64,000 nt of DNA from an uncultured Clostridia bacterium (GCA_947643225.1 CANRVH010000001.1:6868-70867); one strand, 5' to 3'. Counted from the first letter of the stretch, positions 2,451-62,030 are shown. Translations and numbers: made by a program. Notes: generated by a model from the sequence alone, not told the origin.

Positions 2451-2473
2451 GATAATTAGAAGAAGGACTGAGT

Positions 2474-2504: not shown

Positions 2505-2689
2505 CTTTTTTAATTATTCTATCAGAAAGGAGCGTGAAATATGAATGAAATATATTTAAACTGTCGGAGACTATAATGGGTCTTAGGGATTTCTCCCTAA
2601 CAAGAAAAGGGTGTGATAGCACCATGCTTGATAGTTTGAAATTATACTATGTGTCATAAGATGGAGATGATAATCTGAAAAACAAATGG

Positions 2690-3208
2690 ATGTATAGAAA
2701 TGATGTAGAAAGAAATTTAGGTGTATCAAGGAAACAATTAAATCATGCTATTAAAGTAATGGAAAAATATCATTATTTTGAAAATTGGATTTGGTATAAA
2801 TTAGGGCCAACTGATTTAATTGTTTTATTTAATTTAGAATTTGTTGATTGGTTAAAAGATGTATATTTTAATAAAGATGGATTTTTCTTAGACAGAGAAA
2901 TCCATTTTTTAAATGAAAAAATTAAAGATTTAGAAAATGAATTAGGTATTTCTCATTACGAGAAAAATTATCCATATCTAAATGTAAAAGAACTACAAGA
3001 ATACTTTGATAAAAGTAATAGCTCTATTTTAAAGGCAATTGAAAGAATGAATAGAAAAATTGATTGTAAATGCTATAAAGATGGAAAATTATATATTACT
3101 CCTACTGGAGTAAAATGGTTAGATCAAAACTATTATAGAAAATCATACCTTAAAGAGTTGTTAAATTATAAAAAAATACTAAATGAAAAGGAGAATAAAA
3201 ATGACTAA
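2690..3208 (+). CDS. hypothetical protein, possibly DNA-binding (element cargo)
   Basis: 172-aa ORF. The C-terminal segment VKELQEYFDKSNSSILKAIERMNRK looks HTH-like. No confident family assignment. Confidence 0.4.
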   Translation: MYRNDVERNLGVSRKQLNHAIKVMEKYHYFENWIWYKLGPTDLIVLFNLEFVDWLKDVYFNKDGFFLDREIHFLNEKIKDLENELGISHYEKNYPYLNVKELQEYFDKSNSSILKAIERMNRKIDCKCYKDGKLYITPTGVKWLDQNYYRKSYLKELLNYKKILNEKENKND

Positions 3209-3593
3209 AGTTGATAGAAGAAAGAAAATAAATATCATGTTAAATGATGAAGAAAGAAGAATAATTACAGAAAAAGCAGTTGAATATGGATTTGGTCCAC
3301 ATCTTGCTACCTATGTTAGAAGTGCTTGTATTTATGAATCTTTATATAAAGAAGATATAGAAGGTAAAAATGAAATAATTAAAATAATGAGTGATTATAT
3401 TAGTGTTGTTAATAGAATACAATATGAGCAATCACAGTTAACTAAAAAAATTATGTTAAGTGAAGGAGATATACACATGATTAAAGATAATAATACTCTT
3501 CTTCATAATGAAATAAGAAAGCTAATTAAGACAATTGAAAATACATTAACAGTTAAACGTGTAAAAGAAACTAAGCAGAAACTAAATAAATAG
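3201..3593 (+). CDS. MobC-like ribbon-helix-helix protein (mobilisation accessory type)
   Basis: RRKKINIMLNDEERRIITEKAVEYGFGPHLATYVRSACI resembles the MobC/RHH family core (R…I.VRLT.EE…L…A…G.S.S.Y.R). ATG 3201 with an AAAGGAG RBS. It overlaps the upstream ORF. Confidence 0.5.
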   Translation: MTKVDRRKKINIMLNDEERRIITEKAVEYGFGPHLATYVRSACIYESLYKEDIEGKNEIIKIMSDYISVVNRIQYEQSQLTKKIMLSEGDIHMIKDNNTLLHNEIRKLIKTIENTLTVKRVKETKQKLNK

Positions 3594-3659
3594 CTTCTGC
3601 TTTTTCTTAAAGTATTATTTTACAATTTTTCTCATAGTTTTAAATAAAGGAGATGAGTT

Positions 3660-3857
3660 ATGGATTCTAATGATATTATGAGAAGTAAAGAAGTAAAATA
3701 TAAGAATAAAGAAATACTTTTAGAAGTGGCTCTTTCCTTAAATAAAGAGTTATTTGATGAAAATAAAATTTCATATAAAATGTTTAAATATACAGAAGAA
3801 AATATTTTAAAAGAATTAAAAATTTGTAATGTAAGTGGTGCAAATGCTAATACATGA
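3660..3857 (+). CDS. small hypothetical protein immediately upstream of the serine recombinase; could be a recombination directionality factor
   Basis: 65-aa ORF with an AAGGAG RBS. The proposed role rests on position only. Confidence 0.25.
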   Translation: MDSNDIMRSKEVKYKNKEILLEVALSLNKELFDENKISYKMFKYTEENILKELKICNVSGANANT

Positions 3858-3897
3858 AAATAATATGGTATAATGCTATTAGAAAGGAGAAGAAGAG

Positions 3898-5607: not shown

Positions 5608-5637
5608 GTTAGACATATAATTTTTCACTTGGCGACT

Positions 5638-6252
5638 TCATTTTCGCGCACTTTGTTCAAATAGACATACAAAGTCACCAGTACCACCAATAAATGCACT
5701 ACTCATAGCAGCAAAACTAACAGAAGTATCAATATTAACATCTTTTTTTGGATTAAGACCAGCTTCACGAATTGCCCATTCAAGAGTCATTTCAGGCATA
5801 CCTCCAGCACGACCACCAATAATTGTTTTCCCCTTTAGATCTTCCAGTTTAAAATTATCAATTTTCTTTCTAGAAACAATAAAATTACCATCTTTTTGAG
5901 TAAGTTGAGCGAATGTTTTTAAATAATCTTTTTCCCCGCTATTATAAATATAAATAGTTGCTTCACTTCCAGAAAAACCAATATCAGCATCTCCTGCTAA
6001 AACAGCAGCAGTAACTTTATCAGCTCCAGGTGTTAAACTCAAATTAATATCAATTCCCTCGTCCCTAAAAAATCCTTTTTCAATAGCAACATATTGAGGT
6101 GCATAAAAAATTGTATGTGCAACCTCAGCTACAGTAATCTTTTTTAATTTTTCCTTTTTATCCTTTTTTTGATCATTAAAATTAAAGAATATAGCACAAA
6201 TAGCTAATAATAAAATAATAATACTAACTACATATAAAATAATTTTTTTCAA
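5638..6252 (-). CDS. NMT1/THI5 (SsuA-like) ABC-transporter substrate-binding protein, apparently truncated at the C-terminus (204 aa versus about 320 aa typical)
   Basis: Signal/anchor MKKIILYVVSIIILLLAICAIFF, then the SsuA-like fold motifs (ITVAEVAHTIFYAPQYVAIEKGFFRDEGIDINL…GDADIGFSG). The ORF stops 30 nt from the recombinase stop. Confidence 0.55.
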   Translation of the reverse strand: MKKIILYVVSIIILLLAICAIFFNFNDQKKDKKEKLKKITVAEVAHTIFYAPQYVAIEKGFFRDEGIDINLSLTPGADKVTAAVLAGDADIGFSGSEATIYIYNSGEKDYLKTFAQLTQKDGNFIVSRKKIDNFKLEDLKGKTIIGGRAGGMPEMTLEWAIREAGLNPKKDVNIDTSVSFAAMSSAFIGGTGDFVCLFEQSARK

Positions 6253-6322
6253 AATAGTCCTCCTTTCTATTTCAAAGTATTATATGCAAAAGAATAAAGA
6301 TGTGATATAAAGGCATTACTAC

Positions 6323-6351
6323 TTGCCAAATAAAAAGAAATATGCTATAAT
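6323..6351 (+). promoter_or_regulatory. sigma-70-type promoter (TTGCCA-N17-TATAAT) for the adhesin gene
   Basis: Read directly: ttgccaaataaaaagaaatatgctataat. Confidence 0.5.
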
Positions 6352-6384
6352 AAGAGACATTAAATTCGATAGGGGGATAATAGA

Positions 6385-7656
6385 ATGAAAAATAATAAAA
6401 TAACAAAAACAATGTTAGTATTACTAATTACAATTACATCATTTTTTACAACAATGAGTAATGCCTTTGCTGAAGTGCCAAATAAAATTAATGTGACATC
6501 AACACCAGCTGTCAAAGGATATATTGGAGAAAAAGTAAACTTTGGAACAAAATCATTAAATGATGGTAGTGTTGCATACTGTTTAGATTACAATAAGTTA
6601 ACTCCAGATCATGCTATTGGAACATTAGCAGGTGAAATGGATGCAGGAATGGCCTATTTAATTGAAAATGGTTATCCACATAAAACCATAACAGGAGATA
6701 AAGCAAAAGATTATTATATTACACAAGTAGCAATTTGGTGGTATTTAGATGAAACAACAGGATCAACAAACTTAACTAATGAATTTAAAACAACAGATAG
6801 TGATCCACAAAATTTAAGACCAACCATAAAAAAGCTAGTAGATAATGCCAAAATAGTTAAAAATAAAGGATACAAAAATCCAAGTCTATCAGCAACAATC
6901 ACAAATAGAAAATTAACGATCTCAACAGATAAAAAATATTATATTTCAGACGAGATAAAAGTAAATTTAACAGATTTAGAAAGTTATACAGTTTCATTAA
7001 CAACCGCACCTGAAGGAAGTTATATAGCAGATGGAAAAGGAAATAAGAAAACAACTTTCCAAAAAGGAGAAACATTTAAAGTTTATGTCAAACAAACTGA
7101 TCAAAAAATTAAAAAAAGTGATATTAAGATAAAAATTAGTGGAACAACAACAATAAATAAAGTATACAAGTATAATCCAGAAAATGATGTAGAGCAAAGA
7201 ATATTAACTGCAGTTCTTTATCCAACAACAATAAAAAAAGAACAAGATCTATCTTTGACAATCTCACCATCAAAAGTAACAATTAATAAAATTGATGCAG
7301 AAACAAAAAAAGCCTTAGCAGGGGCAGTTCTTGTAGTAAAAGACAAAGCTGGAAATATTGTTGCAGAATTTACAACAAGTGAAGAATCTTATATTATTGA
7401 AGACTTAAGTAATGGAGAATACGAAGTATCAGAAAAAAGTGCTCCCGAAGGATATATCTTAAGCGAAAAAACATATCAATTTACGATTGATGATGATAAC
7501 AGAAATCACACAGTCATATTTGAAAATTATAAAGAAATATATGTTCCAGATACAAACTCTAATAGCACAATAATGTATATACTAGGTACAATCATAATGG
7601 TATCAGGTATCTCATTTGTAATCTACAATGCTAAGAAAAAACAAATTAATAAATAA
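6385..7656 (+). CDS. thioester-domain (TED) surface adhesin with a CnaB/SpaA-type domain and a non-canonical sortase sorting signal
   Basis: Signal peptide present. The TED Cys motif AYCLDYNK and Gln motif YITQVAIWWY are both there. A CnaB-type domain reads AGAVLVVKDKAGN…EYEVSEKSAPEGY. The C-terminus is IYVPDTNSNST followed by a hydrophobic helix and a KKKQ tail. Confidence 0.75.
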   Translation: MKNNKITKTMLVLLITITSFFTTMSNAFAEVPNKINVTSTPAVKGYIGEKVNFGTKSLNDGSVAYCLDYNKLTPDHAIGTLAGEMDAGMAYLIENGYPHKTITGDKAKDYYITQVAIWWYLDETTGSTNLTNEFKTTDSDPQNLRPTIKKLVDNAKIVKNKGYKNPSLSATITNRKLTISTDKKYYISDEIKVNLTDLESYTVSLTTAPEGSYIADGKGNKKTTFQKGETFKVYVKQTDQKIKKSDIKIKISGTTTINKVYKYNPENDVEQRILTAVLYPTTIKKEQDLSLTISPSKVTINKIDAETKKALAGAVLVVKDKAGNIVAEFTTSEESYIIEDLSNGEYEVSEKSAPEGYILSEKTYQFTIDDDNRNHTVIFENYKEIYVPDTNSNSTIMYILGTIIMVSGISFVIYNAKKKQINK

Positions 7657-8299
7657 AAAGAAACATGAAGTAAGTTCTAATACGATTGCCATGATATCAA
7701 GTATTGTCATTTTATTAGGACTCTTCATTTTTTCTTATAATTATACTAAATCTAAAAAAATATTAGCCTATGAACAAATGAATAACATCTTTTATGAAGA
7801 TCATTCAAAGACAGAAAAGAAAGAAAATAAAAAACAACAAAAAGAAGAAAAAATACAAGAACAAGAGGAGAAAAAGGAAATCATCACAAATGATTACATA
7901 GGCTATTTAGAGATACCAAAAATAAAGTTAAAAAAAGGGTTTGTTAGTAAAAAATCAAGTGATAATGATGTGGAAAAAAATATCTTTATAGTAGAACAAT
8001 CTACCTATCCTGATAAAGAAAAAGGTAACTTCATTATTGCCGCACATTCAGGAACTGGCTGGAAAGCTTTCTTTAATGATTTATATCAATTAGAACAAGG
8101 TAATGAGATTTATGTTACTTATAAAAATAAAAAATATACCTATAAAATAGCAGATATTTATAAGCAGAAAAAAACAGGAACTATCGCTATATATAGAGAT
8201 TATAATAAAACAACATTAACATTAGTAACCTGCACAAACAATGATGATACATCACAGACAGTTTATATTGCTTATTTAGAAAAAATAGAAAATTTATAG
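7628..8299 (+). CDS. class B-type sortase
   Basis: N-terminal TM helix, the His motif IIAAHSG and the catalytic TLVTCT motif. It overlaps the end of the adhesin gene. An ATG at 7691 is an alternative start. Confidence 0.8.
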   Translation: MLRKNKLINKKKHEVSSNTIAMISSIVILLGLFIFSYNYTKSKKILAYEQMNNIFYEDHSKTEKKENKKQQKEEKIQEQEEKKEIITNDYIGYLEIPKIKLKKGFVSKKSSDNDVEKNIFIVEQSTYPDKEKGNFIIAAHSGTGWKAFFNDLYQLEQGNEIYVTYKNKKYTYKIADIYKQKKTGTIAIYRDYNKTTLTLVTCTNNDDTSQTVYIAYLEKIENL

Positions 8300-8315
8300 A
8301 AGGGGGGAATAAAAA

Positions 8316-9293
8316 ATGATGAATGAATTATCTCTAATAGAAAAATTTAAAGTTGTCTTTGATATTACCAAATCAAATATCGTTTATCCAATTATTATAA
8401 TTTTTTTACTAATTATCAGCTTTCTATTTATAACAACAAATAAAAATAATGCCAAAGAAAGTAAAAAAGTTTATGGAAGCCTATATGCTATTTTAATGAT
8501 AATAATTTTAATTAAATATGCGACTTCATTAAAAACAATGATAGACTATATGATGAATCATTTATTTATTGTTTTTTACTTTCCCAATATTGCCGTTTAT
8601 TTAACAGCAATCCTCATCACAAATATCATCATGTGGATCAGTATGTTTAAATCATCTACTAAAACTATAATAAAAATAATCAATGCAACAATATTTTCTA
8701 TAATTCATTACATCTTACTTTTAATCCTTGGAATCATTACAACAAAAAAGATAGACGTCTTTAATCAAAAAGCACTATATGCTAATCACGATATTCATGC
8801 TTTAATTGAATTAAGCAGTAATATTTTTATAATATGGATGATCTTTCTTATCCTTTACAAAATAATTTATACTTATCTTGAAAGCAAAAAAGGACAAAAA
8901 ATCTATGATAACCAATTACTTGCAATAGAACAAGTCCAAAAAGTAGAAAAAGAAGGAACTGTAACAATTAATCTTCCAAAAAACATTAAAGAAGTAAGAG
9001 CACCATATCTAGTAAAAAGAGAAATGTCTAAAACAAGAATTGTTTATCAATTACCAAAACAAATGGAAAATACAGCTATTTATGAACAAATGTTGACTTT
9101 AGATGATTATAAATTATTAGTTTCCCTATTAAAAGAAGAAAAAGAAAAAGGGGTAAAAACAATCTTAAATAATCAGAAACACACGATAAACAAAGAAAAA
9201 ACAGAAGAAGAAAGGTTGACCCAAAAAAACAAACAGTCCCAACCAGAAAGTGGACTATCAGAATTGATGAGATTATATAAAAGTACAAGCTAA
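8316..9293 (+). CDS. polytopic membrane protein, function unknown
   Basis: Several hydrophobic helices and a charged C-terminal tail. A G6 run lies in the RBS (aggggggaat). Confidence 0.5.
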   Translation: MMNELSLIEKFKVVFDITKSNIVYPIIIIFLLIISFLFITTNKNNAKESKKVYGSLYAILMIIILIKYATSLKTMIDYMMNHLFIVFYFPNIAVYLTAILITNIIMWISMFKSSTKTIIKIINATIFSIIHYILLLILGIITTKKIDVFNQKALYANHDIHALIELSSNIFIIWMIFLILYKIIYTYLESKKGQKIYDNQLLAIEQVQKVEKEGTVTINLPKNIKEVRAPYLVKREMSKTRIVYQLPKQMENTAIYEQMLTLDDYKLLVSLLKEEKEKGVKTILNNQKHTINKEKTEEERLTQKNKQSQPESGLSELMRLYKSTS

Positions 9294-39893: not shown

Positions 39894-40023
39894 TACTTTT
39901 TTCTTATTCCCAATTATAATAAAACTATAGAAAGAGAAAAAGAAAATGAAATTATTTCATATATAGTAAGTTATATTTCTTTGATAAAAAATAAATTATG
40001 TCATCAATAGGTGGGGTGTGCAT

Positions 40024-41421
40024 ATGTTAAAATATTATAAAAATACAGTTTTATATAACGATAATATTAAAACAGGGATCGGAATTATTACAGGGTGGAA
40101 AAAACCAAGCTTAATAAAAGAACATTTAACAAATGAAAGTTTAGATAAGACAAAGACGATAGGAACCTTATATACAAAGAATGGGATTAATTATATAATA
40201 GCAAATTTATTTTTAAATCCAGAGATTAATCATTTAATATTTTTAGAAGATTCAGATATAAAAAATACGATTAGTGAAAGTATAAAAACATTTTTATATT
40301 TTTTAGAAACAGAGGAAATTACTTTCCAAGAAAAGTTTCATTATAGTAAGGAAAATATACATGAATTTTGTACTTATTTTAAAAATCATATTTCTGTTGT
40401 GGCCAGTAAAAATTTAAATGAAGAAATTAATAAAATTTCCTCTGAAACAAATTGGAGAAAAGAACCATTAGAATTAGAAGCTATAAAAATAGAAAATACA
40501 GAGACTTTAACAAGTGAAAAACAAGGATTTATGGTTCGGGCCAATACTGTTAAAGAAGCATGGGAGCGTAGTTTAAAATTAATCGGCACATATGGAAATC
40601 TGAAACTATCTGATTACGATGAAAACCAACTGGAATTAATTAATCTATCAATTATTGTCAAAAATGAGAACTTAACAAGTCCCTCTATGATTGGAACACT
40701 TGAAATTACAGAAGAGGAATTAAGAAAATATGAGGAAAGTTTATTAGACAAAGAAAAAACATCAGATATTAAATATACATATGGGGGACGTTTTCGAAAT
40801 TTTCATGGAATAGATCAATTAGAATATATGGTAAAAACTTTAAAGAATACACAATACTCAAGAAGAGCTGTTTCAATGTTATGGGACCCCAATTTAGAGG
40901 CAAACCATAATGAAGGTCCTTGTCTAAATTTATATCAAGCTGTTGTTCAAGATAATCTGCTTTATATGACTGCTTATTTTCGCTCAAATGATATTTATAA
41001 TGCATATCCTAGAAACATTTATGGAATCTTAAAGATTCAAGATGAGTTATGTCAAAGACTAAATCTAGAAAAGGGATATGTTAATACTATTGCATGCTCT
41101 GCTCATGTATATGAAAGAAATTTTGAGGACTTGAAAGCATTTACAGAAAGCAATATTTTATTTTGTGAAGAAGATGAAAGAGGTTATTTCTTTGTAGAGA
41201 CTAGTGAAGATGGAATACAAGTAACATTATATAATAGAGAGGGTGTAGAACAAAAAGAATTTCAAGGAACAAGTGCAAATACACTTCGTGATGCAATATG
41301 TTTTCACACAAGTAATATAGAACATGCATTTTACTTAGGACAAGAAATAGCAAAAGCAGAGATTGCTTATAAAAATAATCTTCCATATATTCAGGATAAA
41401 GAACTTATACTAAAAAAATAA
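40024..41421 (+). CDS. thymidylate synthase (ThyA)-fold protein with an N-terminal extension of about 165 aa and altered active-site motifs
   Basis: The C-terminal 300 aa align to ThyA: [26 protein letters not shown] matches [37 protein letters not shown] matches [28 protein letters not shown] matches YQRSCDVFLGLPFNIAS, and SAHVY matches DTHLY. The N-terminal 165 aa match no family I recognise. Confidence 0.6.
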   Translation: [465 protein letters not shown]

Positions 41422-44343: not shown

Positions 44344-45429
44344 ATGAGAAGAAGAAAGTTAAAAAGAAAAGTCAAAGTAACCATTGTTATATTAGTTATA
44401 CTAGGACTTCTTCTTATTGCTAGTAGTGGTCTTTATAGTTATTTAGTAAGTCCAGTAGATAAAACATCAAAAGCAACGATTGAAGTAAAAATTACAACAG
44501 GAATGTCCACCAAAAAGATAGGAGAACTTTTAGAGAAAAAAGGCCTAATTAGAGACAGCAGTTTTTTTCTAATATACACCAAACTAAACCATTGCAGTTC
44601 CCTAAAAGCAGCAACTTATGATTTAAAGAAAAATATGTCTTTAAGAAAAATAACAGATGTCATTTGTAATGGACAAGCTAGTAATACAGAAACAATCAAT
44701 ATTACCTTTAAAGAAGGAAAAAGAATTACAGATTATGCTAAACTAATTAGTGAAAAAACAACTAATAGCTATGATGATGTCATAAATTTAATGAAGAATT
44801 ATACCTACATCGAAGAATTAATTGATAAATATTGGTTTCTAACAGAAACTATCTTAAATCCCAACATTTATTATCCTCTAGAAGGATATATCTATCCTGA
44901 TACATACCAATTTGAAAATAAAAATGTAGAGATTAAAACAATAATAGAGAAAATGTTAAATCAAACAGATAAAATATTAACAGAATACAAAGATAGTTTA
45001 CAAAATAGTAAACATACGATTCACGAATATCTAACTTTAGCAAGTATGGCTGAACTTGAAGGAACAAATACAGAAAATAGAAAGATGATTGTTGGAATTT
45101 TTGAAAATCGCATGAAAAGAAAAATGAATCTAGGAAGTGATGTAACAACATACTATGCATTACAACTCCCTATGACTAGTGATTTAACAGCAAAACAATT
45201 TGCAACTAAAAATCCATATAACACTAGAGATATGGAAATGAAAACACTCCCAGTAGGCCCAATAGCAAGTATTTCTAAGTCATCTCTAGAAGCAGCACTT
45301 AATCCAACACCAAGTTCATATTACTACTTTGTAGCAGATAAACTAGGAAATATTTTTTATACTAAAAATAGCAATGAACATTTAAAGAAAGTTCAAGAAA
45401 TAAAGGAAGCGGGAAACTGGATATGGTAG
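44344..45429 (+). CDS. mltG: endolytic murein transglycosylase MltG (YceG family)
   Basis: N-terminal TM helix, a LysM-like segment and the YceG core (…YYFVADKLGNIFYTKN…). Position in the conserved cluster. Confidence 0.8.
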   Translation: MRRRKLKRKVKVTIVILVILGLLLIASSGLYSYLVSPVDKTSKATIEVKITTGMSTKKIGELLEKKGLIRDSSFFLIYTKLNHCSSLKAATYDLKKNMSLRKITDVICNGQASNTETINITFKEGKRITDYAKLISEKTTNSYDDVINLMKNYTYIEELIDKYWFLTETILNPNIYYPLEGYIYPDTYQFENKNVEIKTIIEKMLNQTDKILTEYKDSLQNSKHTIHEYLTLASMAELEGTNTENRKMIVGIFENRMKRKMNLGSDVTTYYALQLPMTSDLTAKQFATKNPYNTRDMEMKTLPVGPIASISKSSLEAALNPTPSSYYYFVADKLGNIFYTKNSNEHLKKVQEIKEAGNWIW

Positions 45430-46010
45430 AGGAATTAGAAAAAATAAAAGAATATGCCAAAGTTAATCATATTCCCATTATGCAAGAAGATGGAATAGAA
45501 TTTTTAATTAAATTGATTAAAGAAAATAAGATAAAAAATATTTTAGAAATAGGAACAGCAATAGCATACTCCACTATAAAAATGGCTTTAGTAGATCCTT
45601 CAATTAAAATAACAACAATTGAAAGAGATGAAGAAAGATACTTAGAAGCTTCAAAAAATATCAAAAAATTAGACTTAGAAAAACAAATCACGATAATTTT
45701 CAATGATGCAAGTGAAGTGAACCTACAACAAAAATATGATCTAATCTTTATTGATGCTGCTAAGGCACAAAATAAAAGATTTTTTCTAAAATTTAAAGAT
45801 AATCTAAAAAAAGATGGATATATTACAACAGATAATATCAATTTTCATGGATTAACTAAAAAGAACTTAGAAGAAATTGAAAGTAAAAATCTAAGAGGCT
45901 TAATTAGAAAGATTAACGATTATATTAACTTCTTAAAAGAAAACAAAGAATACACAACAACTTTTTATGAAGTAGGAGATGGCATAGCAATCAGTAAAAG
46001 GAATGAGTAA
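45423..46010 (+). CDS. class I SAM-dependent O-methyltransferase (YrrM/caffeoyl-CoA OMT-like)
   Basis: SAM motif ILEIGTAIAYSTI…FDLIFIDAAK. It overlaps the mltG stop. Confidence 0.75.
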   Translation: MVEELEKIKEYAKVNHIPIMQEDGIEFLIKLIKENKIKNILEIGTAIAYSTIKMALVDPSIKITTIERDEERYLEASKNIKKLDLEKQITIIFNDASEVNLQQKYDLIFIDAAKAQNKRFFLKFKDNLKKDGYITTDNINFHGLTKKNLEEIESKNLRGLIRKINDYINFLKENKEYTTTFYEVGDGIAISKRNE

Positions 46011-46728
46011 AATGAATGATCTAAAAAAAATTGAATATAATAAGAAATTATTAATTGCATTAATTATAGTACTTATCTTATATATCGTTTTATTAATAGT
46101 AAAAAATAACAATGATCAAGCCTATAGCAACTACAAGGACGATGAAAGTAAAGAATATGTGTATACAAAATATGAATCAACTAAAAATAATGCTAAAGTA
46201 CCTTATATTAATTTAGTAACAGAAGATGCCAAAAAGGTTAATCAGGAGATTTTAACTCTTGCAACAGAATACTTAAAAGCAACTAATAAGAATAAAACAG
46301 TGACTTATCGTTACAATCAAAACAAAAATATTTTATCTGTAGTTCTAACCTTTAGGGATATTAATCAATATGATCAGTTAAAATATCGCTATAAAACATA
46401 TGTCTTCGATTTAAAGAATTCTGCAAAATTATTAACAAATAATCAAATTATTGATAAATTTAATATTACCTATGACGAAATAAATGAAATTATGGCTAAA
46501 GCAATGAAAGAAAAGTATGTAGATGAAGTAAGAAAAGGTTTTATTGAAAAAAACGAATGCAATTATAGCTGTTTTTTAGAAAATAGAAATATTAATAATT
46601 ATATCGATCAGGCAAACTATTATATAGAAAACTCTCATCTAATGGTATATAGAGCCTTTGAAGTATATTCTATTTATGGTGAAGAAGAATATTTTACTAG
46701 AAATGACTTTAAATTTTTAATAAAATAG
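46003..46728 (+). CDS. hypothetical N-terminally anchored protein
   Basis: TM helix, then a hydrophilic domain (…HLMVYRAFEVYSIYGEEEYF…). No confident family. Confidence 0.4.
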   Translation: MSKMNDLKKIEYNKKLLIALIIVLILYIVLLIVKNNNDQAYSNYKDDESKEYVYTKYESTKNNAKVPYINLVTEDAKKVNQEILTLATEYLKATNKNKTVTYRYNQNKNILSVVLTFRDINQYDQLKYRYKTYVFDLKNSAKLLTNNQIIDKFNITYDEINEIMAKAMKEKYVDEVRKGFIEKNECNYSCFLENRNINNYIDQANYYIENSHLMVYRAFEVYSIYGEEEYFTRNDFKFLIK

Positions 46729-46771: not shown

Positions 46772-47629
46772 ATGTCTTTTATTTTAACTGCAAGTGCCAA
46801 TATTTGTTCAGATTTTGTTTTAGCAACAATATTAAGTATTATAAGAAGAGGACTTAATCTGATTCAAATCATTGTTCCATTCGTTTTACTTATATCAGGA
46901 ATATTACGATTTATAAAATTAATGTTAAATCCAGATAATGATAAAAAAGGCATGAAAGCCTTCTTTAACTCAATTATAGCAGCAGTTATTATCTTTTTTT
47001 TACCAGCAATAATAAATACAATGATGAATATCATTAATGAATCAGGTGAAGTAGGAATAACAGATGATCAATATTTAACTGTTTTCAATCTATCAAGTTG
47101 TTGGACAGCTGCTGAAAATACTCAAGCAGAAATGGATTCTGTAGCAGAAAGTGGTGGCTCCAATAGTTCAACGATAAAAGACGAATACAAAAAATATATT
47201 TTGCTAAATGATACCTCGAATATAACTCCCTTCGAACGTCCAAATTCTTCTAGCAATGCCCAAAATACAGAAATGGGAACAAAAATCATCAATTATGCCA
47301 AACAATTTATTGGGAGACCTTATGTATGGGGAGGGAATAGCTTAACAAACGGAACAGATTGTAGTGGATTTATTCATTTGGTTTATGCTAACTTTGGAAT
47401 TAATGTTCCAAGGCAATCCACGGCATTCAGAACAATAGGAACAGAAGTACCAAGTATTAATGATGCACGAGCAGGTGACATCATTTGTTACAATGAACAC
47501 GTTGCTTTGTTCCAAGGAGATGGACTAAAAATTGTTCATGCTAAAAGTTCTAAAACAGGAATAGTAGAAGACCAAACTCCTTTTTATGGAAGTAAAAGTG
47601 TAATCACAATTAGAAGAGTAGTAAATTAA
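46772..47629 (+). CDS. membrane protein with a novel N-terminal two-TM domain fused to a C-terminal NlpC/P60 peptidoglycan endopeptidase domain
   Basis: NlpC/P60 core GRPYVWGGNSLTNGTDCSGFIHLVYANFGINVP…HVALFQGDG…HA. The N-terminal domain of about 120 aa is shared with the next gene. Confidence 0.7.
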   Translation: MSFILTASANICSDFVLATILSIIRRGLNLIQIIVPFVLLISGILRFIKLMLNPDNDKKGMKAFFNSIIAAVIIFFLPAIINTMMNIINESGEVGITDDQYLTVFNLSSCWTAAENTQAEMDSVAESGGSNSSTIKDEYKKYILLNDTSNITPFERPNSSSNAQNTEMGTKIINYAKQFIGRPYVWGGNSLTNGTDCSGFIHLVYANFGINVPRQSTAFRTIGTEVPSINDARAGDIICYNEHVALFQGDGLKIVHAKSSKTGIVEDQTPFYGSKSVITIRRVVN

Positions 47630-47642
47630 AGAAGGTGATGAA

Positions 47643-48068
47643 ATGATTTATCTAGCAGAATCAATTTGTAGAGACTATACTTTAGCAACAATTTTATCGA
47701 TAATAAAAAGAGCACTTACCTTAATTCAAGTCGTAGTTCCCATAGTTTTACTTATATCTGGTATCATGCAGTTTATAAAATTAATGTTAAATCCAGATAA
47801 TGATAAAAAAAAATTAAAAGCCTTTTTAAATTCAATTATAGCAGCAACAATTATTTTTTTCTTACCATTAATTATAAATATATCCATGAATATCATCAAT
47901 ATCAATTATGAAGCAGGAATAGCAAAAGATGATATAATTACAGCTTTTGATATTAGTAGTTGTTGGGAGAAAGTAGATCAAATCCAAGATGAAATGGACT
48001 CAGCAAATGAGACAAAAAGTAGTACCATAAAAGAGGAAGAAGAAAAGAAATTGACCACATTAAAGTAA
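47643..48068 (+). CDS. paralogue of the N-terminal domain of the preceding gene, lacking the NlpC/P60 domain
   Basis: About 65% amino-acid identity to residues 1-130 of the 46772 product (LATILSII[KR]R.L.LIQ..VP.VLLISGI..FIKLMLNPDNDKK..KAF.NSIIAA.IIFFLP.IIN). It contains an A9 run. Confidence 0.5.
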   Translation: MIYLAESICRDYTLATILSIIKRALTLIQVVVPIVLLISGIMQFIKLMLNPDNDKKKLKAFLNSIIAATIIFFLPLIINISMNIININYEAGIAKDDIITAFDISSCWEKVDQIQDEMDSANETKSSTIKEEEEKKLTTLK

Positions 48069-48119: not shown

Positions 48120-49427
48120 ATGAAATATTATTGTTTAGGAATAAAAGGAACAGGAATGTCAACTCTTGCTCAAATCCTACATGATTTAGGACATACAGTA
48201 ACAGGTTATGACGATGCCAAAGAATATAAGTTTACTCAAAAGGGACTAGATGATAGAAAGATTAAAATTTATTACGAACATAATCATGCTATTGATCAAG
48301 ACACAATTGTAACCTATTCAGTTGCTGTAAAAGAAGATCATCAAGAACTTCAACGAATAAAAGAAATGGGTTTAAAAATAAAAAAATACAATGAAATAAT
48401 GGGTGATATTACCAAAATATTTGACACGATCTCTGTAGCAGGAACACATGGAAAAACAACAACATCTTCACTAATCAAACATATTTTATATCATACAATA
48501 GGTTGTAATTATTTTATAGGAGCAGGAGATGGTTATGCCAATAAGAAAAATAAACTATTTGTTATGGAATCAGACGAATTTAACAAACATTTTATAACCT
48601 ATTATCCAAAATATTCTGTAATTACTAACATAGAAAAAGAACATATGGAGTGTTATAAAGATCTAAATGACATTATTTCCACATTTGAAGTCCTTGCCAA
48701 TCATACAAGAGAAGAAATTATAGCCTGTGGAGATAATGAAAATATCAGAAAAATAACACCAACAAAAACTCCTATTATTTATTATGGATTTAGTGAAAAC
48801 AATGAATATCAAATAAAAAATGAACAAATAACAGAAAAGGGAGAGAATTTTGATTTATATCAAAATAAGAAATGGTTAGGGAATTTTACTGTACCATTAT
48901 ATGGAAAGCATATGGTTTTAAATACAACAGCAGCTATAATTATATGTATGAAACATAATATTGAAATAGAAAAAATAAAAGAGTTATTGTTAACCTTTCA
49001 AAATGCTAAGCGTCGTTTTGTAGAAGAAAAAATAAAAGATAGCATTATTATCGACGATTATGCACATCATCCAACAGAAATAAAAGTAACACTAGAAGCA
49101 ATTAGAGCAAAGTACCCCAAGAAAAGATTAGTAGCAGTTTTTAAGCCTAATACATATTCTAGAACAAAGGATTTTAAAGATGAATTCATTCAATCGTTAA
49201 AAATAGCAGATAAAGTCTATTTAACAGAAATAGATTGTAATAGAGAAAAACAAGAAGATTATGAGGGAGTAACTTCTCATACAATATTAGATCAAATAAA
49301 AGATGCTGAGATCATTTCTGAAGATACCATTAATAAATTAGAAAATGAAAAAAATTCAGTGATTTGCTTTATGAGTTGTGCCTATGTAAATCACTTGATA
49401 GAGGGATATAAGAACTTATTAAAATAG
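48120..49427 (+). CDS. murC: UDP-N-acetylmuramate--L-alanine ligase
   Basis: Mur ligase N-terminus MKYYCLGIKGTGMSTLAQIL, the ATP-binding motif VAGTHGKTTTSSLI, and the DDYAHHPTEI C-terminal domain. Confidence 0.9.
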   Translation: MKYYCLGIKGTGMSTLAQILHDLGHTVTGYDDAKEYKFTQKGLDDRKIKIYYEHNHAIDQDTIVTYSVAVKEDHQELQRIKEMGLKIKKYNEIMGDITKIFDTISVAGTHGKTTTSSLIKHILYHTIGCNYFIGAGDGYANKKNKLFVMESDEFNKHFITYYPKYSVITNIEKEHMECYKDLNDIISTFEVLANHTREEIIACGDNENIRKITPTKTPIIYYGFSENNEYQIKNEQITEKGENFDLYQNKKWLGNFTVPLYGKHMVLNTTAAIIICMKHNIEIEKIKELLLTFQNAKRRFVEEKIKDSIIIDDYAHHPTEIKVTLEAIRAKYPKKRLVAVFKPNTYSRTKDFKDEFIQSLKIADKVYLTEIDCNREKQEDYEGVTSHTILDQIKDAEIISEDTINKLENEKNSVICFMSCAYVNHLIEGYKNLLK

Positions 49428-53235: not shown

Positions 53236-54024
53236 ATGAAAATTTTAATAACAGGTGGAAGGGGAGGAATAGCTTATTTAACAGCTTCCAAACTTTCTAA
53301 ACTAGGTCATAAAATTTATCTTTGTACTCATACAAGTAAACAATTAGAGACCTTAAAAAAGAAAATAAAAAAAGAACAATTAAATATTGTGCCCTATAAA
53401 CTAGATATTACAAATAAAGATGATTTACAATTATTAGATAAATTAGATTATGACATAGTATGGGCCCATGCTGGAATAGGAAATGGGGGAACTCTTCTAG
53501 CAATGGAAGTAGATGTATTAAGAGAAAATTATGAAACAAATATTTTTGGAACAATGGAGGTAGTAAGAAAGGCTTATTTGAATTTTAAACAACAAAAGAA
53601 AAAAGGAAAAATTTTTGTAACTTCCTCACTTGCAGGAATGCTACCACTTCCTTATCTTTCTTGTTACACTTCCTCTAAAGCAGCATTATCTATGTTATGT
53701 TTTACCCTAAAAAAGGAACTAAAAGAATCAGGTACTAATATTACGATTTCTTTAATTGAACCAGGTGCTTATAAAACTGGCTTTAATGAAGTAATGATAG
53801 AAAATAAAGAAAAATTTTTAAAGACGAAAAATATATTTTATAATGATAGAAAAAAAATAACTCAATCACAGAAGAAATTATTCAATTTAATTGAAAATAA
53901 GAATATTGACAAATTAGTAAATAAAATAATAAAAGAAATGACAAAAGAAAATCCAAAATTTAAAATAAGAAGTCCATTTATACAAGCATTATTTACTAAA
54001 TTATATTATTTATTCTATAGATAG
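53236..54024 (+). CDS. short-chain dehydrogenase/reductase (SDR) family oxidoreductase
   Basis: Rossmann ILITGGRGGIAY, catalytic YTSSKAAL (YxxxK), and the NITISLIEPGAYKTGF motif. Confidence 0.8.
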   Translation: MKILITGGRGGIAYLTASKLSKLGHKIYLCTHTSKQLETLKKKIKKEQLNIVPYKLDITNKDDLQLLDKLDYDIVWAHAGIGNGGTLLAMEVDVLRENYETNIFGTMEVVRKAYLNFKQQKKKGKIFVTSSLAGMLPLPYLSCYTSSKAALSMLCFTLKKELKESGTNITISLIEPGAYKTGFNEVMIENKEKFLKTKNIFYNDRKKITQSQKKLFNLIENKNIDKLVNKIIKEMTKENPKFKIRSPFIQALFTKLYYLFYR

Positions 54025-54959
54025 ATAATATTATTTCTTTATCTTTAATAAACAAATCATTAATCCAATTCACTCTTAGCTACTAGAACTTACTTTTATT
54101 CCCAGAAAATCTTGATAATATTTAAACTAAACATCAGAAAGAGATAGATCTTTTGTCTTAAAAGTTGATAAATAGTCTTATCAATACAATAGCAAAGAAT
54201 GTCCTAATTTAAATTATAAATATTATTTTTATGGATCATTTTCTTATAACAACAATAATTATATAATAAGTAAAAACTTCCACATAAAAAATATTGATCA
54301 TCTTTTCTATTTCTTAAATAGTTTCAAATTAATGGGTAATTATATATATATCATTTTACAAGATTAATATAACAAAGCTTTAACTTCGACAAAACATTCA
54401 CAATTTAAAAACTCCATCTGTTCCTTTTCATTAATTCCTAGCAACTATCTCTTGGTAACTTCCTTTTATTCCATAAGGTGATACGATAACATCCAGGATA
54501 GGATTTCTTGTAGAAATGGAGCAATCTTTATGGAGTTTCATCTTAATATTCCATAAATCAAAAATAGTTTTAATATTATCCACTACATAAGTAAAAAAAT
54601 GATTGTATTATAACATGGATGAGAAAAAAACAGTAAAATTGATATTACTAAAATTATTTTTATATAGAGAAAGTCAGATAAATAGCTTTGTAAAATCATA
54701 ATACTCGTATAATCAATTTTAAGGAAAGATCATTCCAAAAGGCTGTTTTTTTTCTTTTCTATATTTTTGATTTATTATACCTCTAGAAGTATAATAAATC
54801 TTGCACTCCTATTCTTAGTTGTAATTATTTTACTTCTAAAATAATAAAAGCATCTGATTTCAACATTAGTTTATTTCAAATGCTATTCTTCAAGGGATTA
54901 CATCTGATTTTTACAATAAAATGTAACTTTTTTATTTTATATTGACATATTCATAATAA

Positions 54960-54995
54960 CATAAAAACGACTTTTTGATAAGTCGTATTTTTATT
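54960..54995 (-). terminator. hairpin with flanking T/A runs, read as an intrinsic terminator downstream of the tRNA on the minus strand (possibly bidirectional)
   Basis: ACGACTTTTTGATAAGTCGT inverted repeat flanked by ATAAAAA and ATTTTT. A second hairpin, ACTCGAAAGTTCGAGT at 55008-55023, directly abuts the tRNA 3' end. Confidence 0.5.
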
Positions 54996-55026
54996 GTCAC
55001 TCGAAAGTTCGAGTTTCCTGTCAATC

Positions 55027-55103
55027 TGGTAGCGCCGGGGAGATTCGAACTCTCGACCTATCGGGTATGAACCGATTGCTCTAGCCAACTGAGCTACAGC
55101 GCC
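55027..55103 (-). tRNA. tRNA with a CAU anticodon (elongator Met or lysidine-type Ile2), 77 nt, with an encoded CCA
   Basis: The reverse complement folds as a cloverleaf: GGCGCUG/UA/GCUC-AGUUGGCUA-GAGC/A/AUCGG-UUCAUAC-CCGAU/AGGUC/GAGAG-UUCGAAU-CUCCC/CGGCGCU/A/CCA. It has two G-U pairs in the acceptor stem and one T-stem mismatch. The anticodon-stem base lacks the three G-C pairs of an initiator. Confidence 0.85.
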
Positions 55104-55122
55104 AAATAAATGAAACAATAAA

Positions 55123-55152
55123 AGTATATCAAAACAAAGAATACTTGACAAT
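55123..55152 (-). promoter_or_regulatory. promoter for the tRNA gene (minus strand TTGTCA-N18-TATACT)
   Basis: The reverse complement of 55123-55152 reads ttgtcaagtattctttgttttgaTATACT and ends about 20 nt upstream of the tRNA 5' end. Confidence 0.4.
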
Positions 55153-55299
55153 ACTTTTTTAAAAATTACAGTAAAAAAATTTCGCAAAGAAAATCTGATA
55201 TAATTACTACATAATAAAAAAGCCATATGTAGTAATGAATAGAAAAAAGAAGAGAACTAAGAAAAGATAAAGATCTAATAAAGGAATTATATACCATTA

Positions 55300-55930
55300 T
55301 ATCTAGATATTTACCTGAGTTATTAACCATGTTTGATAATTTGACTGATACAAGACATCAAAGTTATATGACTTATACAATGAAAGCTATTTGTGTTGCT
55401 AGATTATTCACATTGTTATGTAGAATAACTACTATGACAGATATTTTCACAGATACTTTTGATACAGATAATTGTATTAAAAATATATCTAAAATTTGTA
55501 AACAAAATTTAAAAGAACTTCCTTATTAAGAAACAATTCAATATGTATTTATGAACAAATCAATAGGAATATCCAAAAACTTTAATCCGCTCAAAAATGT
55601 TTAATAAATATAAATATGATGGCTACTTTTAACTATTTATTGATGGAACTAACCTTTCTGGCTATAATAATAATTTAAATAACAATTGTATTAAGAAAAA
55701 ATATAAAGATGGTAAAATTTGTTATTGTTAATATGTTTAAGAATGTAAATTAATTGTGGGTAACATAACTATTAGTCTAGATAGTGAATGGATAGAAAAT
55801 ACAGATAGAATGATACTCAAAAACAAGATTGTAAATCAAGGCTTTTGTAAGAACGGCTAAAAGAATCATTATTTCTTCATTTAATTTACTCATACTATAA
55901 GATAATCACCAGAACCTTGTCTGTAAAATT
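55300..55930 (+). pseudogene. decayed ISAs1-family (H-repeat-associated) transposase remnant
   Basis: The only intact ORF is the 66-aa fragment at 55329-55529: LTDTRHQSYMTYTMKAICVARLFTLLCRITTMTDIF resembles the DDE_Tnp_1_assoc N-terminal domain (DPR…H.L.DIL.IA..A.LCG…). Downstream frames contain …LIDGTNLSG… (compare IDGKTLRGS) interrupted by stops. Confidence 0.4.
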
Positions 55931-56037
55931 TTAACTAAACAAATTTATTTACTCTTTTTCACTGAAAAAATTAATAAAAAAATCTATTGATAATAAGAGA
56001 ATAAAATATTTATGTTATAATAAAAATAGGTGATAAG

Positions 56038-58912: not shown

Positions 58913-58931
58913 TCAAAAAGAGGTGACTAAA

Positions 58932-61900
58932 ATGAAATTTGAAAAATTAGATAATGGAAAAATCCACGAAGTAGAAAGTAAATTAGTTAAAAAGTGGAAA
59001 GAGATTGATATCTTAAATAAGTGTATAGACACAAAAGATCAAAAAAATAATTTTGTATTTTATGATGGACCAATTTATGCCAATGCTAAACCAGGAATAC
59101 ATCATGTTTTTGCAAAGACAATAAAAGATTCTTTTTGTAAGTTTAAAACGATGCAAGGATACAGAGTGTTAAGAAAAATAGGATTAGATACACATGGACT
59201 ACCAATTGAAGTAAATGTAGAAAAAAAATTAGGGTTTAAATCTAAAACAGACATTGAAAAATTAGGTATTGAAAAATTCTGCGAAGAATGCAAAAATGAA
59301 ACAGCAACCAATATTGATGAAGTAAAGAAAGTAACCGATATGATGGGGCAATTTATTGATTGTGATAATCCCTATGTTACCTGTAGTAATGAATTCATTG
59401 AATCTGAATGGTGGATAGTAGATCAATTAAATAAAAAAGGATTAATTTACTATGGAAATAAAGTTTTGCCTTATTGTCCTAGATGTGGAACAGAACTTGC
59501 TTCACATGAAGTTTCTCAAGGATATAAAGAAGTTTCAGTTAATACCGTTATTGTACCCTTTAAATTAGTAAATGAAGATACTTATGTTCTAGTATGGACG
59601 ACAACACCTTGGACTTTAATGGCCAATGTTAGCTTATGTGTGAATCCCAAACTAGAATATATTAAAGCATCAAGCAAAGGATACCACTTTATTGTTGCTA
59701 AAGATTTAGCAAATACTGTTTTAGGAGAAGAGTACGAAATACAAAAAACCTATCATGGAACTGATCTAGTTGGATTAAAATATGAACAATTAATGCCCTT
59801 TGTCAAAGTAGAAGGGAAAGCCTTTGAAATTCTTGCTGATGACTATGTTACCGCAAGTGATGGTACAGGAATTGTCCATATCGCTCCTGCTTATGGAGTA
59901 GACGATAATAGAGTAGCAACGAATGCGAATATTACTTTTATTAATCCAGTCGGAAAAGATGGTTGTTATACTGAAGGACCTTGGCAAGGAAGATTAGTAA
60001 CTGATCCTGAATTAGAAATCGATATTATTAAATACCTAAAAGAAGAAGATAAACTATTTAAAAAAATGAAAATAGTACATGATTATCCACATTGTTGGAG
60101 ATGTAAGCAACCACTAGTTTATTATGCAAAACCAGCTTGGTATGTTAAAAATACAGCATATAAAGAACAGATTATCGAAGAGAATAACAAAATCAATTGG
60201 TATCCTAACTATGTTGGTGAAAAACGGTTTAAGAACTGGCTTGAAAATATGATTGATTGGGGAATTTCTAGAAATCGTTATTGGGGATGCCCACTGCCAA
60301 TATGGACTTGTTGCTGCGGGCACTTTGAAACAATAGGTTCCCGTAGAGAATTAAAAGATAAAGCACTTGAAGAGATTGATATCGAAAGTCTAGAACTTCA
60401 TCGACCTTATGTTGATCAAATTCATATCAAGTGTTCAGAATGTGGAAAAAGTATGAATCGTGTACTAGATGTAATGGATGTTTGGTTTGATTCTGGAGCT
60501 ATGCCATATGGACAGTACCATTATCCTTTTGAAAATAAAGAATTGTTGGAAACCCAATTTCCAGCTGACTTTATTGCAGAAGGAGTTGATCAAACTCGTG
60601 GTTGGTTTTATGTACTTTTAGTTTTATCTACACTAATTAGTGGCAAATCCAGCTTTAAAAATGTTGTAGTTAATGATATGATGCTAGATGCTCATGGAAA
60701 AAAAATGAGTAAATCTGTAGGAAATATTATTAATCCAATAGAAATTATGACAGAATATGGAGCAGATACAATTAGATTTTATATGCTATATACATCTCCA
60801 GTTTGGACTCCTCTTAGATTCGATGAAAATGGTGTCAAAGAAGTCTATTCCAAATACATATCTACCTTTAAGAATGCTTATTCTTTCTTTGAAATGTATG
60901 CCAATGCCGATCATATTGATCCAAGAGAGTATAATATTCCAGTAGAAAAACGTGAGCTTATAGATAGATGGCTACTTTCTAAACTAAACAAATTAGTTAA
61001 AAATGTTACACATGCATTAGAAGAATATGATCTAAATAAAGCAACTAAGTTGATTGTTCCATTTCTAAATGATGATTTATCTAATTGGTATATTAGAAGT
61101 AATAGAAGAAGATTTTGGGATTCATCCCTTACAGATAGTAAAAAAGCTGTTTATTTAACTACTTATGAAGTTCTAACTACACTATGTAAGCTATGTGCTC
61201 CAATTACTCCATTTTTAACAGAGGAAATTTATCAAAAATTAACGAATGAGGAATCTGTTCATTTAGCAGATTATCCTATATGTCAAGAAAACCTAATAGA
61301 TGTAGAAACAGAAGAAAGAATGGATTTGGTAAGAGATATTTGTTCATTAGGAAGATATGCCCGTGAAGAAGTCAATATCAAAGTTCGCCAACCAATTAGA
61401 AATCTAATTTTACCAGCTAATAATCAAATCGTTTTAAAAGATCTTATTAGTGCAATAAAAGAAGAATTAAATGTAAAAAACATCGAATTTAAAGAAGATA
61501 TGAGTGACTATCTAGAATATATTGTCAAACCAAATTTTAAAGAACTAGGTCGTACCTTAGGACCAAAAATTAAACGATTACAAGAAATTGTTAAAGACTT
61601 TAGAAATGAGGAAGTAGAAAAAATAAAAAATGGAGGATTAGAAATCAATTTAGATGGTGAAAAATTAACCTTAACAGAAGAAACAGTCATCATTTCCTTA
61701 AAACAAAAAGATGGTTATGCATCATGTAGCAATGAAAAAACTTGTGTTGTTTTAGATACGAATTTAGATGATGAATTAATATTAGAAGGGCTTGCTAGAG
61801 AAATGATTCGTACAATTCAAAGTTTAAGAAAAGATGCTGATTTTGTTATTACTGATCATATCAAAGTTTATTATCAAGGAGATGAAGATATTGATAAAAT

Positions 61901-62030
61901 GTTAGAGTCTTATCAAGAATATGTAAAACAAGAAACACTTGCAGAAGAAATCATCAAAAAGGAAGATTTAACATCAGAAGAACAAGATTTAAATCATCAT
62001 CAATGTAAAATTATAGTAGAGAAAATATAG
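58932..62030 (+). CDS. ileS: isoleucyl-tRNA synthetase (type-2/eukaryote-like architecture, no C-terminal zinc finger)
   Basis: Class I aaRS with KMSKS (KMSKSVGN), a CP1 editing domain, TIKD after the HIGH-region (GIHH variant) and WISRNRYWG typical of IleS. The ORF track starts at GTG 58923. ATG 58932 with a GAGGTG RBS is preferred. Confidence 0.9.
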   Translation: MKFEKLDNGKIHEVESKLVKKWKEIDILNKCIDTKDQKNNFVFYDGPIYANAKPGIHHVFAKTIKDSFCKFKTMQGYRVLRKIGLDTHGLPIEVNVEKKLGFKSKTDIEKLGIEKFCEECKNETATNIDEVKKVTDMMGQFIDCDNPYVTCSNEFIESEWWIVDQLNKKGLIYYGNKVLPYCPRCGTELASHEVSQGYKEVSVNTVIVPFKLVNEDTYVLVWTTTPWTLMANVSLCVNPKLEYIKASSKGYHFIVAKDLANTVLGEEYEIQKTYHGTDLVGLKYEQLMPFVKVEGKAFEILADDYVTASDGTGIVHIAPAYGVDDNRVATNANITFINPVGKDGCYTEGPWQGRLVTDPELEIDIIKYLKEEDKLFKKMKIVHDYPHCWRCKQPLVYYAKPAWYVKNTAYKEQIIEENNKINWYPNYVGEKRFKNWLENMIDWGISRNRYWGCPLPIWTCCCGHFETIGSRRELKDKALEEIDIESLELHRPYVDQIHIKCSECGKSMNRVLDVMDVWFDSGAMPYGQYHYPFENKELLETQFPADFIAEGVDQTRGWFYVLLVLSTLISGKSSFKNVVVNDMMLDAHGKKMSKSVGNIINPIEIMTEYGADTIRFYMLYTSPVWTPLRFDENGVKEVYSKYISTFKNAYSFFEMYANADHIDPREYNIPVEKRELIDRWLLSKLNKLVKNVTHALEEYDLNKATKLIVPFLNDDLSNWYIRSNRRRFWDSSLTDSKKAVYLTTYEVLTTLCKLCAPITPFLTEEIYQKLTNEESVHLADYPICQENLIDVETEERMDLVRDICSLGRYAREEVNIKVRQPIRNLILPANNQIVLKDLISAIKEELNVKNIEFKEDMSDYLEYIVKPNFKELGRTLGPKIKRLQEIVKDFRNEEVEKIKNGGLEINLDGEKLTLTEETVIISLKQKDGYASCSNEKTCVVLDTNLDDELILEGLAREMIRTIQSLRKDADFVITDHIKVYYQGDEDIDKMLESYQEYVKQETLAEEIIKKEDLTSEEQDLNHHQCKIIVEKI

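Follow-up and report, generated by a model that had tools for sequence, protein, structure and literature searches.

In a 64,000-nt stretch of DNA from an uncultured Clostridia bacterium (GCA_947643225.1, CANRVH010000001.1:6868-70867; hereafter the window, to which all coordinates refer), two adjacent genes, p1 and p2, begin with the same membrane domain, and only p1 continues into a cell-wall hydrolase. What is this shared domain, and what does an enzyme-less copy do next to the enzyme? The window has a GC content of 26% and carries nearly all of its genes on the plus strand. A preliminary description of the pair had proposed that the domain is novel. The comparisons presented here point instead to a VirB2-like pilin hairpin without a signal peptide, located in a cell-wall housekeeping operon.

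The shared N-terminal domain

The open reading frames (ORFs) of p1 and p2 lie head-to-tail, with 13 nt between the stop of p1 and the start of p2. BLASTP aligned residues 8-141 of p1 with residues 5-135 of p2 at 63% identity over 134 amino acids (aa; E=5e-51), and the signature quoted in the preliminary description was found in both proteins, which bears out the claim of a common N-terminal domain. The duplication is genuine. An assembly artefact can be dismissed because an identical pair is present in an independent ENA assembly (L001) and because diverged copies (58-70% identity) with unchanged neighbours occur in other lineages (L002/L003/L004, L012 and L013).

In p1 the domain consists, in order, of an invariant Cys12, helix 1 (the first transmembrane segment), a basic loop (NPDNDKKGMK), a second transmembrane segment with an FFLP motif, and an invariant Cys110-Trp followed by the tail EMDS...SSTIKDE. 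The loop joining the helices of p2 is NPDNDKKKLK and positively charged, and p2 has the two hydrophobic helices of a VirB2-like pilin. The AF2 model of p2 (115-sequence alignment) is a two-helix hairpin (residues 12-49 and 55-87, pLDDT 71-89) with a poorly defined tail.

The Pfam family PF18895 [T4SS_pilin, VirB2-like, named after type IV secretion systems (T4SS)] matches p1 with 22.8 bits and p2 with 22.2 bits (E about 1e-4). An exhaustive profile search yielded a large family, with 3378 representatives (clustered at 50% identity) passing E≤1e-3 and 279 passing E≤1e-10; the counts of fusions, positions and PF18895 matches given below refer to the best 150 relatives. PF18895 is matched by 89 of them (best E 9e-10) and TrbC/VirB2 by one, and a 60%-identical relative (P0006) has a precomputed PF18895 match. 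The domain starts within the first 19 residues in all 150 and is thus always N-terminal. Lengths show two modes, one at about 105-160 aa and the other at about 280-400 aa. Invariant or near-invariant residues of the family are the Cys that precedes helix 1, one Pro per helix, and the Cys-Trp that follows helix 2. Sub-threshold NCBIfam matches were to Mbov_0395 ('pilin-like conjugal transfer protein'), Mbov_0396, MMCAP2_0566 and pLS20_p028, which are models of transmembrane proteins from a mycoplasma integrative and conjugative element and from pLS20. A profile search of PDB sequences returned transmembrane noise only.

With a profile built from the housekeeping-type members, P0222 (E 1e-16) and P0250 (E 4e-8) were found in a database of 5.8 billion proteins. 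Their clusters have the order hairpin(s), TrbL_4 (VirB6-like), a 106-aa gene, TraC-like, VirB4-like ATPase and a large Peptidase_C39_2/M23 hydrolase. These remote members supply the decisive connection to secretion systems. On account of the PF18895 matches and the homology to hairpins in such VirB6/VirB4-like clusters, we assign the shared domain to the VirB2-like pilin hairpins, as a borderline member of PF18895. The domain therefore does not qualify as novel: a match to a known family such as the VirB2 pilins was the very outcome that the preliminary description had named as speaking against it.

The T4SS-like clusters with this gene order, led by signal-peptide-bearing hairpins, lie on low-GC, Bacilli-type metagenome contigs (L019:9986-17245 and L020:9986-16963). 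Three tandem or near-tandem hairpin paralogues are present in L019, and a 389-aa protein in L020 also bears a C-terminal hairpin. The contigs have 27-29% GC, and the UppS of L020 is 57-59% identical to the UppS of contigs with housekeeping-type members; for these two reasons we judge the hosts to be the same kind of Bacilli and not Patescibacteria. Low-GC Bacilli do possess VirB2-like hairpins in T4SS clusters.

The hairpins linked to T4SS genes in L019 and L020 bear N-terminal signal peptides. By their reading frames, p1 and p2 cannot have one, because from stop to stop their ORFs extend only 16 (p1) and 6 (p2) codons upstream of the start codons; the hairpin domain begins at residue ~5-10. 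A lipoprotein signal at the sequence before the invariant Cys (ANIC/ESIC) was considered and rejected, since there is neither an n- nor an h-region and position -1 is Ile.

The hydrolase, its relatives and the mltG locus

The second part of p1 is a canonical NlpC/P60 domain, as first described. PF00877 matches aa 181-272 (E 4.3e-16; 59.2 bits against a gathering cut-off of 23), and the catalytic residues Cys197 (DCSG; codon 47360-47362), His243 (HVAL) and His256 (VHAK) align with PDB 8er5 (E 1.4e-15). The Cys-His-His(polar) triad is kept in the p1 orthologues of L002, L012 and L013. The domain is intact and is most likely a gamma-D-Glu-diamino-acid endopeptidase. It matches solved Tn916-like hydrolases with E about 1e-7 and also resembles phage tail lysins.

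About half of the best 150 relatives are fused to peptidoglycan-active domains: NlpC/P60 (28), C39_2 (6), CHAP (6), glucosaminidase (4), M23 (2), Amidase_3 (2), S11 (2) and YkuD (1). Peptidoglycan enzymes make up the overwhelming share of the fusion partners. On many occasions, the branch without signal peptide has been recruited to serve peptidoglycan hydrolases of various types as their N-terminal membrane module. The suggestion that the N-terminal domain is a module accompanying the hydrolase agrees with this finding.

A hairpin gene follows mltG and the O-methyltransferase gene in eight lineages at 30-70% identity (the window, L002, L006, L008, L010, L012/L013, L016 and L017). The upstream order is ireB-ruvX-DUF1292-mltG-O-methyltransferase, usually followed by a gene for a single-pass protein of ~240-260 aa. 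The cargo at this locus varies. Hairpin::NlpC/P60 followed by a hairpin is found in the window, L002, L012 and L013; the order is reversed in L010, where the fusion is colinear with p1 at 32% identity. A hairpin::Amidase_3 fusion is present in L017, and a hairpin alone in L006, L008 and L016. The hairpins of L006, L008, L010, L016 and L017, stand-alone or fused, have 30-45% identity. MurC occupies the position downstream of the pair also in L002, L003 and L004, and a 434-aa ORF stands there in L012 and L013.

Homologues of the 241-aa protein encoded upstream of p1 (33-73% identity) occupy the same position in L002, L006, L010, L012 and L013; genes matched by size and position encode 240 aa in L017 and 265 aa in L016. 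The protein had no match in Pfam, NCBIfam, PHROG or PDB. It is a probable third component of the module. A conserved ECNYxC motif was noted in this uncharacterised family, which is tied to the hairpin module.

The genes of other family members are found between priA and fmt (L014), close to rpsP/uppS (L015) and after pyk (L018). At L014:9771-12208, the 347-aa P0031 is followed by a 381-aa protein, which like the C-terminal part of P0031 has no Pfam match; at L015:10001-12208, P0179 precedes a 602-aa protein, also without Pfam match. These large proteins may represent further cargo or partner domains that have escaped recognition.

In every lineage examined, the hairpins without signal peptide are located in housekeeping operons. 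No T4SS genes were detected within ±10 kb of such hairpins at the loci examined (L002, L006, L008, L010 and L014-L018), and no T4SS component among the window ORFs scanned. The scanned ORFs are mostly housekeeping genes, and those identified include pcrA, ligA, gatAB, ltaS, an LCP transferase gene, dnaE, a rhomboid gene, ruvX, mltG, murC, a two-component system and ileS. p1 appears to be co-transcribed with mltG, whose product terminates glycan strands, and with murC, which encodes the precursor ligase, because no terminator-like site was found on the plus strand between 41900 and 49800. A promoter scan gave as many hits as expected from shuffled sequence in this AT-rich DNA. No Rfam RNA was found in the p1/p2 region.

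Maintenance of p2, gene conversion and other features of the window

p2 had been described as apparently a partial duplication of p1. Eight protein clusters contain it at 55-84% identity, and in at least four lineages the protein keeps its entire length together with a conserved N-terminus and KKLTTLK tail of its own; stand-alone hairpins exist at the locus in distant genomes. On this evidence p2 is a maintained gene and not a decaying partial copy. It also follows from the variety of cargo at the mltG locus and the fusions among the 150 relatives that the stand-alone hairpin there is at least as old as the fusion.

In a four-genome comparison, informative amino-acid sites of the N- and C-terminal flanks group orthologues (61 vs 7), whereas those of the hairpin core group the paralogues of one genome (40 vs 3). 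This flank/core mosaic gave Fisher p values of 5e-5 to 4e-3 in four of six genome pairs. p1 and p2 share a perfect 39-nt tract (Table 1), and the two genes of L002 are identical over 59 nt, a stretch with a two-codon loop insertion common to both. The flanks are only 50-65% identical in DNA (54-73% for the tract of the window pair). Because these perfect runs stand within diverged flanks, we conclude that short-tract gene conversion keeps the hairpin cores of p1 and p2 alike while their flanks remain orthologous. Synonymous-site quartets were too saturated to tell conversion from co-evolution, a question that the identical runs decided for conversion.

A T8 run had been reported at the same codons of both genes. 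It is present in p1, but p2 has a T7 run in another codon phase. Apart from this second T8, what had been observed in the pair (the paralogy, the signature, the NlpC/P60 domain, the T8 of p1 and the A9 of p2) was found again. The T8 is absent from p1 of L002, the A9 occurs in no orthologue, and the third Lys of the p2 A9 is lineage-specific. Tract lengths are identical in two independent assemblies (n=2), and a scan of JGI metagenome DNA for length variants of the A-tract found none. By count the tracts are nothing unusual for this genome, since the window contains 36 runs of A≥8 and six of T≥8. T8 and A9 runs are expected from FFL and KKK codons at 26% GC; TTT makes up 86% of Phe codons.

Composition predicts about 20 runs of A≥9 in the 64 kb; we observed four, and A≥10 did not occur. 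AAAAAAAAA is used at one of 19 in-frame KKK sites of window ORFs, that of p2, although AAA accounts for 86% of Lys codons. Uninterrupted A9 is strongly avoided in the coding sequence of the window, and p2 is the exception.

Table 1. Features of the p1/p2 region (window coordinates)
Feature	Position	Strand	Description	Basis or remark
p1	46772-47629	+	285 aa	ORF and good Shine-Dalgarno; Pfam matches; orthologues in L002, L012, L013
p1 architecture			aa 1-140, VirB2-like helical hairpin with predicted extracytoplasmic tail; then low-complexity linker and NlpC/P60 endopeptidase domain
p1 shared N-terminal domain	46772-47191	+		63% identity to p2; family invariants C, P, P, CW
T8	46994-47001	+	p1 codons TTT TTT TTA	FFL of near-invariant FFLP motif
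39-nt identical tract, p1 copy	46910-46948	+	FIKLMLNPDNDKK	equals 47772-47810; gene-conversion footprint
p1 NlpC/P60 catalytic domain	47288-47626	+	aa 173-285	Pfam; alignment to PDB 8er5; motif positions
p2	47643-48068	+	141 aa, enzyme-less paralogue; hairpin and acidic tail ending KKLTTLK	good Shine-Dalgarno
39-nt identical tract, p2 copy	47772-47810	+		ends inside A9 run
A9	47805-47813	+	p2 codons AAA AAA AAA	KKK of (predicted) cytoplasmic basic loop
T7	47854-47860	+	p2 ATT TTT TTC TTA	starts at codon position 2
MltG/YceG endolytic transglycosylase	44344-45429	+		Pfam 2.3e-65; TIGR00247 3.7e-64
O-methyltransferase (PF01596)	45423-46010	+	by position yrrM/TrmR-like	Pfam; overlaps start of 241-aa gene
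241-aa single-pass membrane protein	46003-46728	+		conserved directly upstream of hairpin genes
MurC-type Mur ligase	48120-49427	+	directly downstream of p2	Pfam Mur_ligase N/M/C

Further features were noted elsewhere in the window. Its left end (320-9293) carries a RhuM-family gene (320-1294), a large serine recombinase gene (3898-5607) and a gene for a thioester-domain (TED)/SpaA adhesin (6385-7656), and could form the border of an integrated mobile element, immediately ahead of pcrA. A 467-aa protein (40018-41421) matches the archaeal-type thymidylate synthase model TIGR03283 with its middle part, aa 172-371 (E 4e-50, just under the cut-off); it has extra N- and C-terminal regions, the C-terminus being weakly similar to MtrA/dihydropteroate-synthase-like proteins, and its architecture is unusual for a Bacillus-class organism. 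For the isoleucyl-tRNA synthetase (58923-62030), which passes the general ileS model, the best models are MupA/MupB of the mupirocin-resistant type (939 and 921 bits against 1900-bit cut-offs). The stretch 54000-56000 is gene-poor and has the lowest GC and a reversed GC skew; within it lies the sole Rfam match of the window, a tRNA on the minus strand (55030-55103).

Proposed function and comparison with known systems

We propose, with moderate confidence, that p1 is a membrane-tethered housekeeping endopeptidase on a VirB2-like hairpin and that p2 is its enzyme-less paralogous partner. The anchor of p1 would be a T4SS_pilin hairpin whose signal peptide has been lost. The positive-inside rule would place the basic NPDNDKK(K/G) loop in the cytoplasm and make the hairpin N-out/C-out. 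The N-tail with the invariant Cys, the acidic tail with the invariant Cys-Trp and the hydrolase would then be exposed on the outer face. We prefer this orientation because it is the topology of VirB2 and the only one that places the hydrolase on the peptidoglycan side. Held there, p1 could remodel the wall near the membrane. p2, and possibly the 241-aa protein, may associate with p1 via the hairpin and position or restrain the enzyme. The three genes would together make up a module on the chromosome of low-GC uncultured gut Bacilli, inserted in their ireB-ruvX-DUF1292-mltG-methyltransferase ... murC operon.

Several points weigh against this proposal, and the part assigned to p2 as a partner is its weakest element. 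Export of the N-tail without a signal peptide is assumed. Neither protein attains the gathering score of PF18895 (26.6 bits), and fold searches returned generic helical hairpins only, which neither confirms nor denies kinship with pilins. All family members come from uncultured organisms. The window covers 64 kb of the genome, and a T4SS encoded elsewhere may use p1 and p2. Finally, since gene conversion explains the concerted evolution of the hairpin cores, their similarity requires no physical interaction; it is therefore no evidence of a p1-p2 complex, and hetero-oligomerisation is a proposal only.

Use by a T4SS or conjugation machine encoded elsewhere, with p2 as its VirB2-like pilin, p1 as a pilin-fused, VirB1-like, wall-piercing hydrolase and the housekeeping operon as no more than their place of lodging, is nevertheless rather unlikely in our view. 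Homologous hairpins do stand beside VirB6/VirB4-like genes and a large C39_2/M23 hydrolase in the same low-GC group, Gram-positive T4SS depend on an NlpC/P60/CHAP hydrolase anchored in the membrane (PMC12857230), Patescibacteria T4SS typically have pilin paralogues in tandem, and the serine recombinase and TED adhesin lie at the left end of the window. However, the lineages examined whose hairpins lack a signal peptide have no T4SS gene within ±10 kb of them, conservation of the place after mltG extends down to about 30% identity, p1 and p2 are without the signal peptide of the T4SS-linked relatives, and among the fusion partners are enzymes not of T4SS type (amidase, S11 carboxypeptidase and YkuD). 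Unlikely, too, is a VirB2-type pilin that these low-GC gut Bacilli have domesticated as a general, T4SS-independent scaffold for wall enzymes, in which p1- and p2-type hairpins co-assemble and carry hydrolases into the wall alongside MltG. Such an assembly might be a membrane-embedded oligomer or a short pilus-like polymer, its enzyme-bearing hairpins being p1 and its amidase, CHAP and M23 cousins. If true, it would be a new way to organise peptidoglycan remodelling, with a conjugation part turned into core envelope machinery.

We consider it very unlikely that p2 is a functionless remnant of a partial p1 duplication, kept intact-looking by conversion from p1. Conversion between the copies is demonstrated, and the end of p2 coincides with the start of the p1 linker. 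Yet p2 has the conserved length, N-terminus and tail described above, its flanks group with its orthologues and not with p1, and besides the stand-alone hairpins in distant genomes there is the reversed order of L010. Still less credible is the idea that T8 and A9 act as slippage-prone phase-variation switches on the hydrolase or its partner, as had been raised for these tracts. A slip of ±1 would cut p1 short at 79/88 aa, and p2 at 57/89 aa, and the KKK of p2 is the one site written as uninterrupted A9. This one instance does not amount to a switch, however. Known contingency loci have longer runs than these; the tracts encode the conserved FFLP and basic loop in DNA in which T and A runs are expected, they are not conserved among orthologues (p2 having T7), and two assemblies agree in their length. 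Least probable of all, and hardly to be entertained, is a holin-like protein with its endolysin, left over from a prophage lysis cassette. A small two-helix membrane protein does adjoin a wall hydrolase akin to phage tail lysins, but neither Pfam nor PHROGs gave a holin match, the hairpin is fused to the enzyme, and there are no phage genes nearby in a region of uniform composition and conserved housekeeping order. From the earlier interpretation we therefore retain the hydrolase-linked membrane module, and we abandon the novel domain, the partial duplication, the frameshift switch and the holin-like role.

VirB2-like pilins are usually regarded as dedicated T4SS parts, and the branch described here is fixed in a core cell-wall operon, by mltG and murC. 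If its function as a tethered endopeptidase with a paralogous partner is confirmed, p1 and p2 would add a new class to the membrane anchors or partners of wall hydrolases and would be a clear case of a mobile-element part taken into housekeeping. The Pfam label 'T4SS_pilin' in these genomes is no evidence of a secretion system. Our literature search found no description of hairpin-hydrolase fusions, of the branch without signal peptide, of its fixation in the mltG operon or of a conversion-homogenised pair with and without enzyme. The fold family and the enzyme are already known; their combined use here is unreported in the searchable literature.

VirB1-like hydrolases of Gram-positive conjugation are exemplified by PrgK (pCF10), TraG (pIP501), Orf14 (Tn916) and CwlT (ICEBs1). 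Such enzymes (PMC12857230) resemble p1 in having NlpC/P60 or CHAP-type domains behind a membrane anchor at the N-terminus. In contrast to p1, which has this architecture but is chromosomal and syntenic with mltG and murC, they belong to the transfer operons of mobile elements, and none of their anchors has been reported as a pilin-like hairpin. VirB2-like PF18895 pilins have been described mainly in T4SS loci of Patescibacteria, also termed candidate phyla radiation (CPR) (PMC12102498; PMC12857230), and Gram-positive T4SS outside Patescibacteria are said to lack VirB2 homologues (PMC12102498). These pilins resemble p1 and p2 in being small, with two hydrophobic helices and a short basic loop, in matching the same hidden Markov model and in their frequent tandem paralogue arrays. 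p1 and p2 differ from them in scoring below the cut-off, in the missing signal peptide, in their distance from VirB3/B4/B6, in the fusion of p1 to a hydrolase and in their location in a cell-wall housekeeping operon of Bacilli.

The order ireB-ruvX-DUF1292-mltG-O-methyltransferase, which frames the hairpin insertion site, is shared with Bacillus subtilis, where it is that of the yrzL-yrrK-yrzB-yrrL(mltG)-yrrM-yrrN-yrrO operon. U32 peptidase genes follow the insertion site in L006, L010, L016 and L017; to our knowledge, no hairpin, hydrolase or 240-aa gene separates the methyltransferase and U32 genes of B. subtilis. Membrane-bound complexes of a hydrolase and a partner are represented by FtsEX-CwlO/PcsB/RipC. 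Staphylococcus aureus has two further pairs, LytH-ActH (PMC9245657) and SagB-SpdC (10.1101/2021.03.06.434200). Like the proposed p1-p2 pair, they combine a tethered hydrolase with a non-catalytic membrane partner and act on membrane-proximal peptidoglycan in growth. They have no sequence kinship with p1 and p2, and they differ in that the putative partner p2 would be a paralogue of the enzyme's own anchor.

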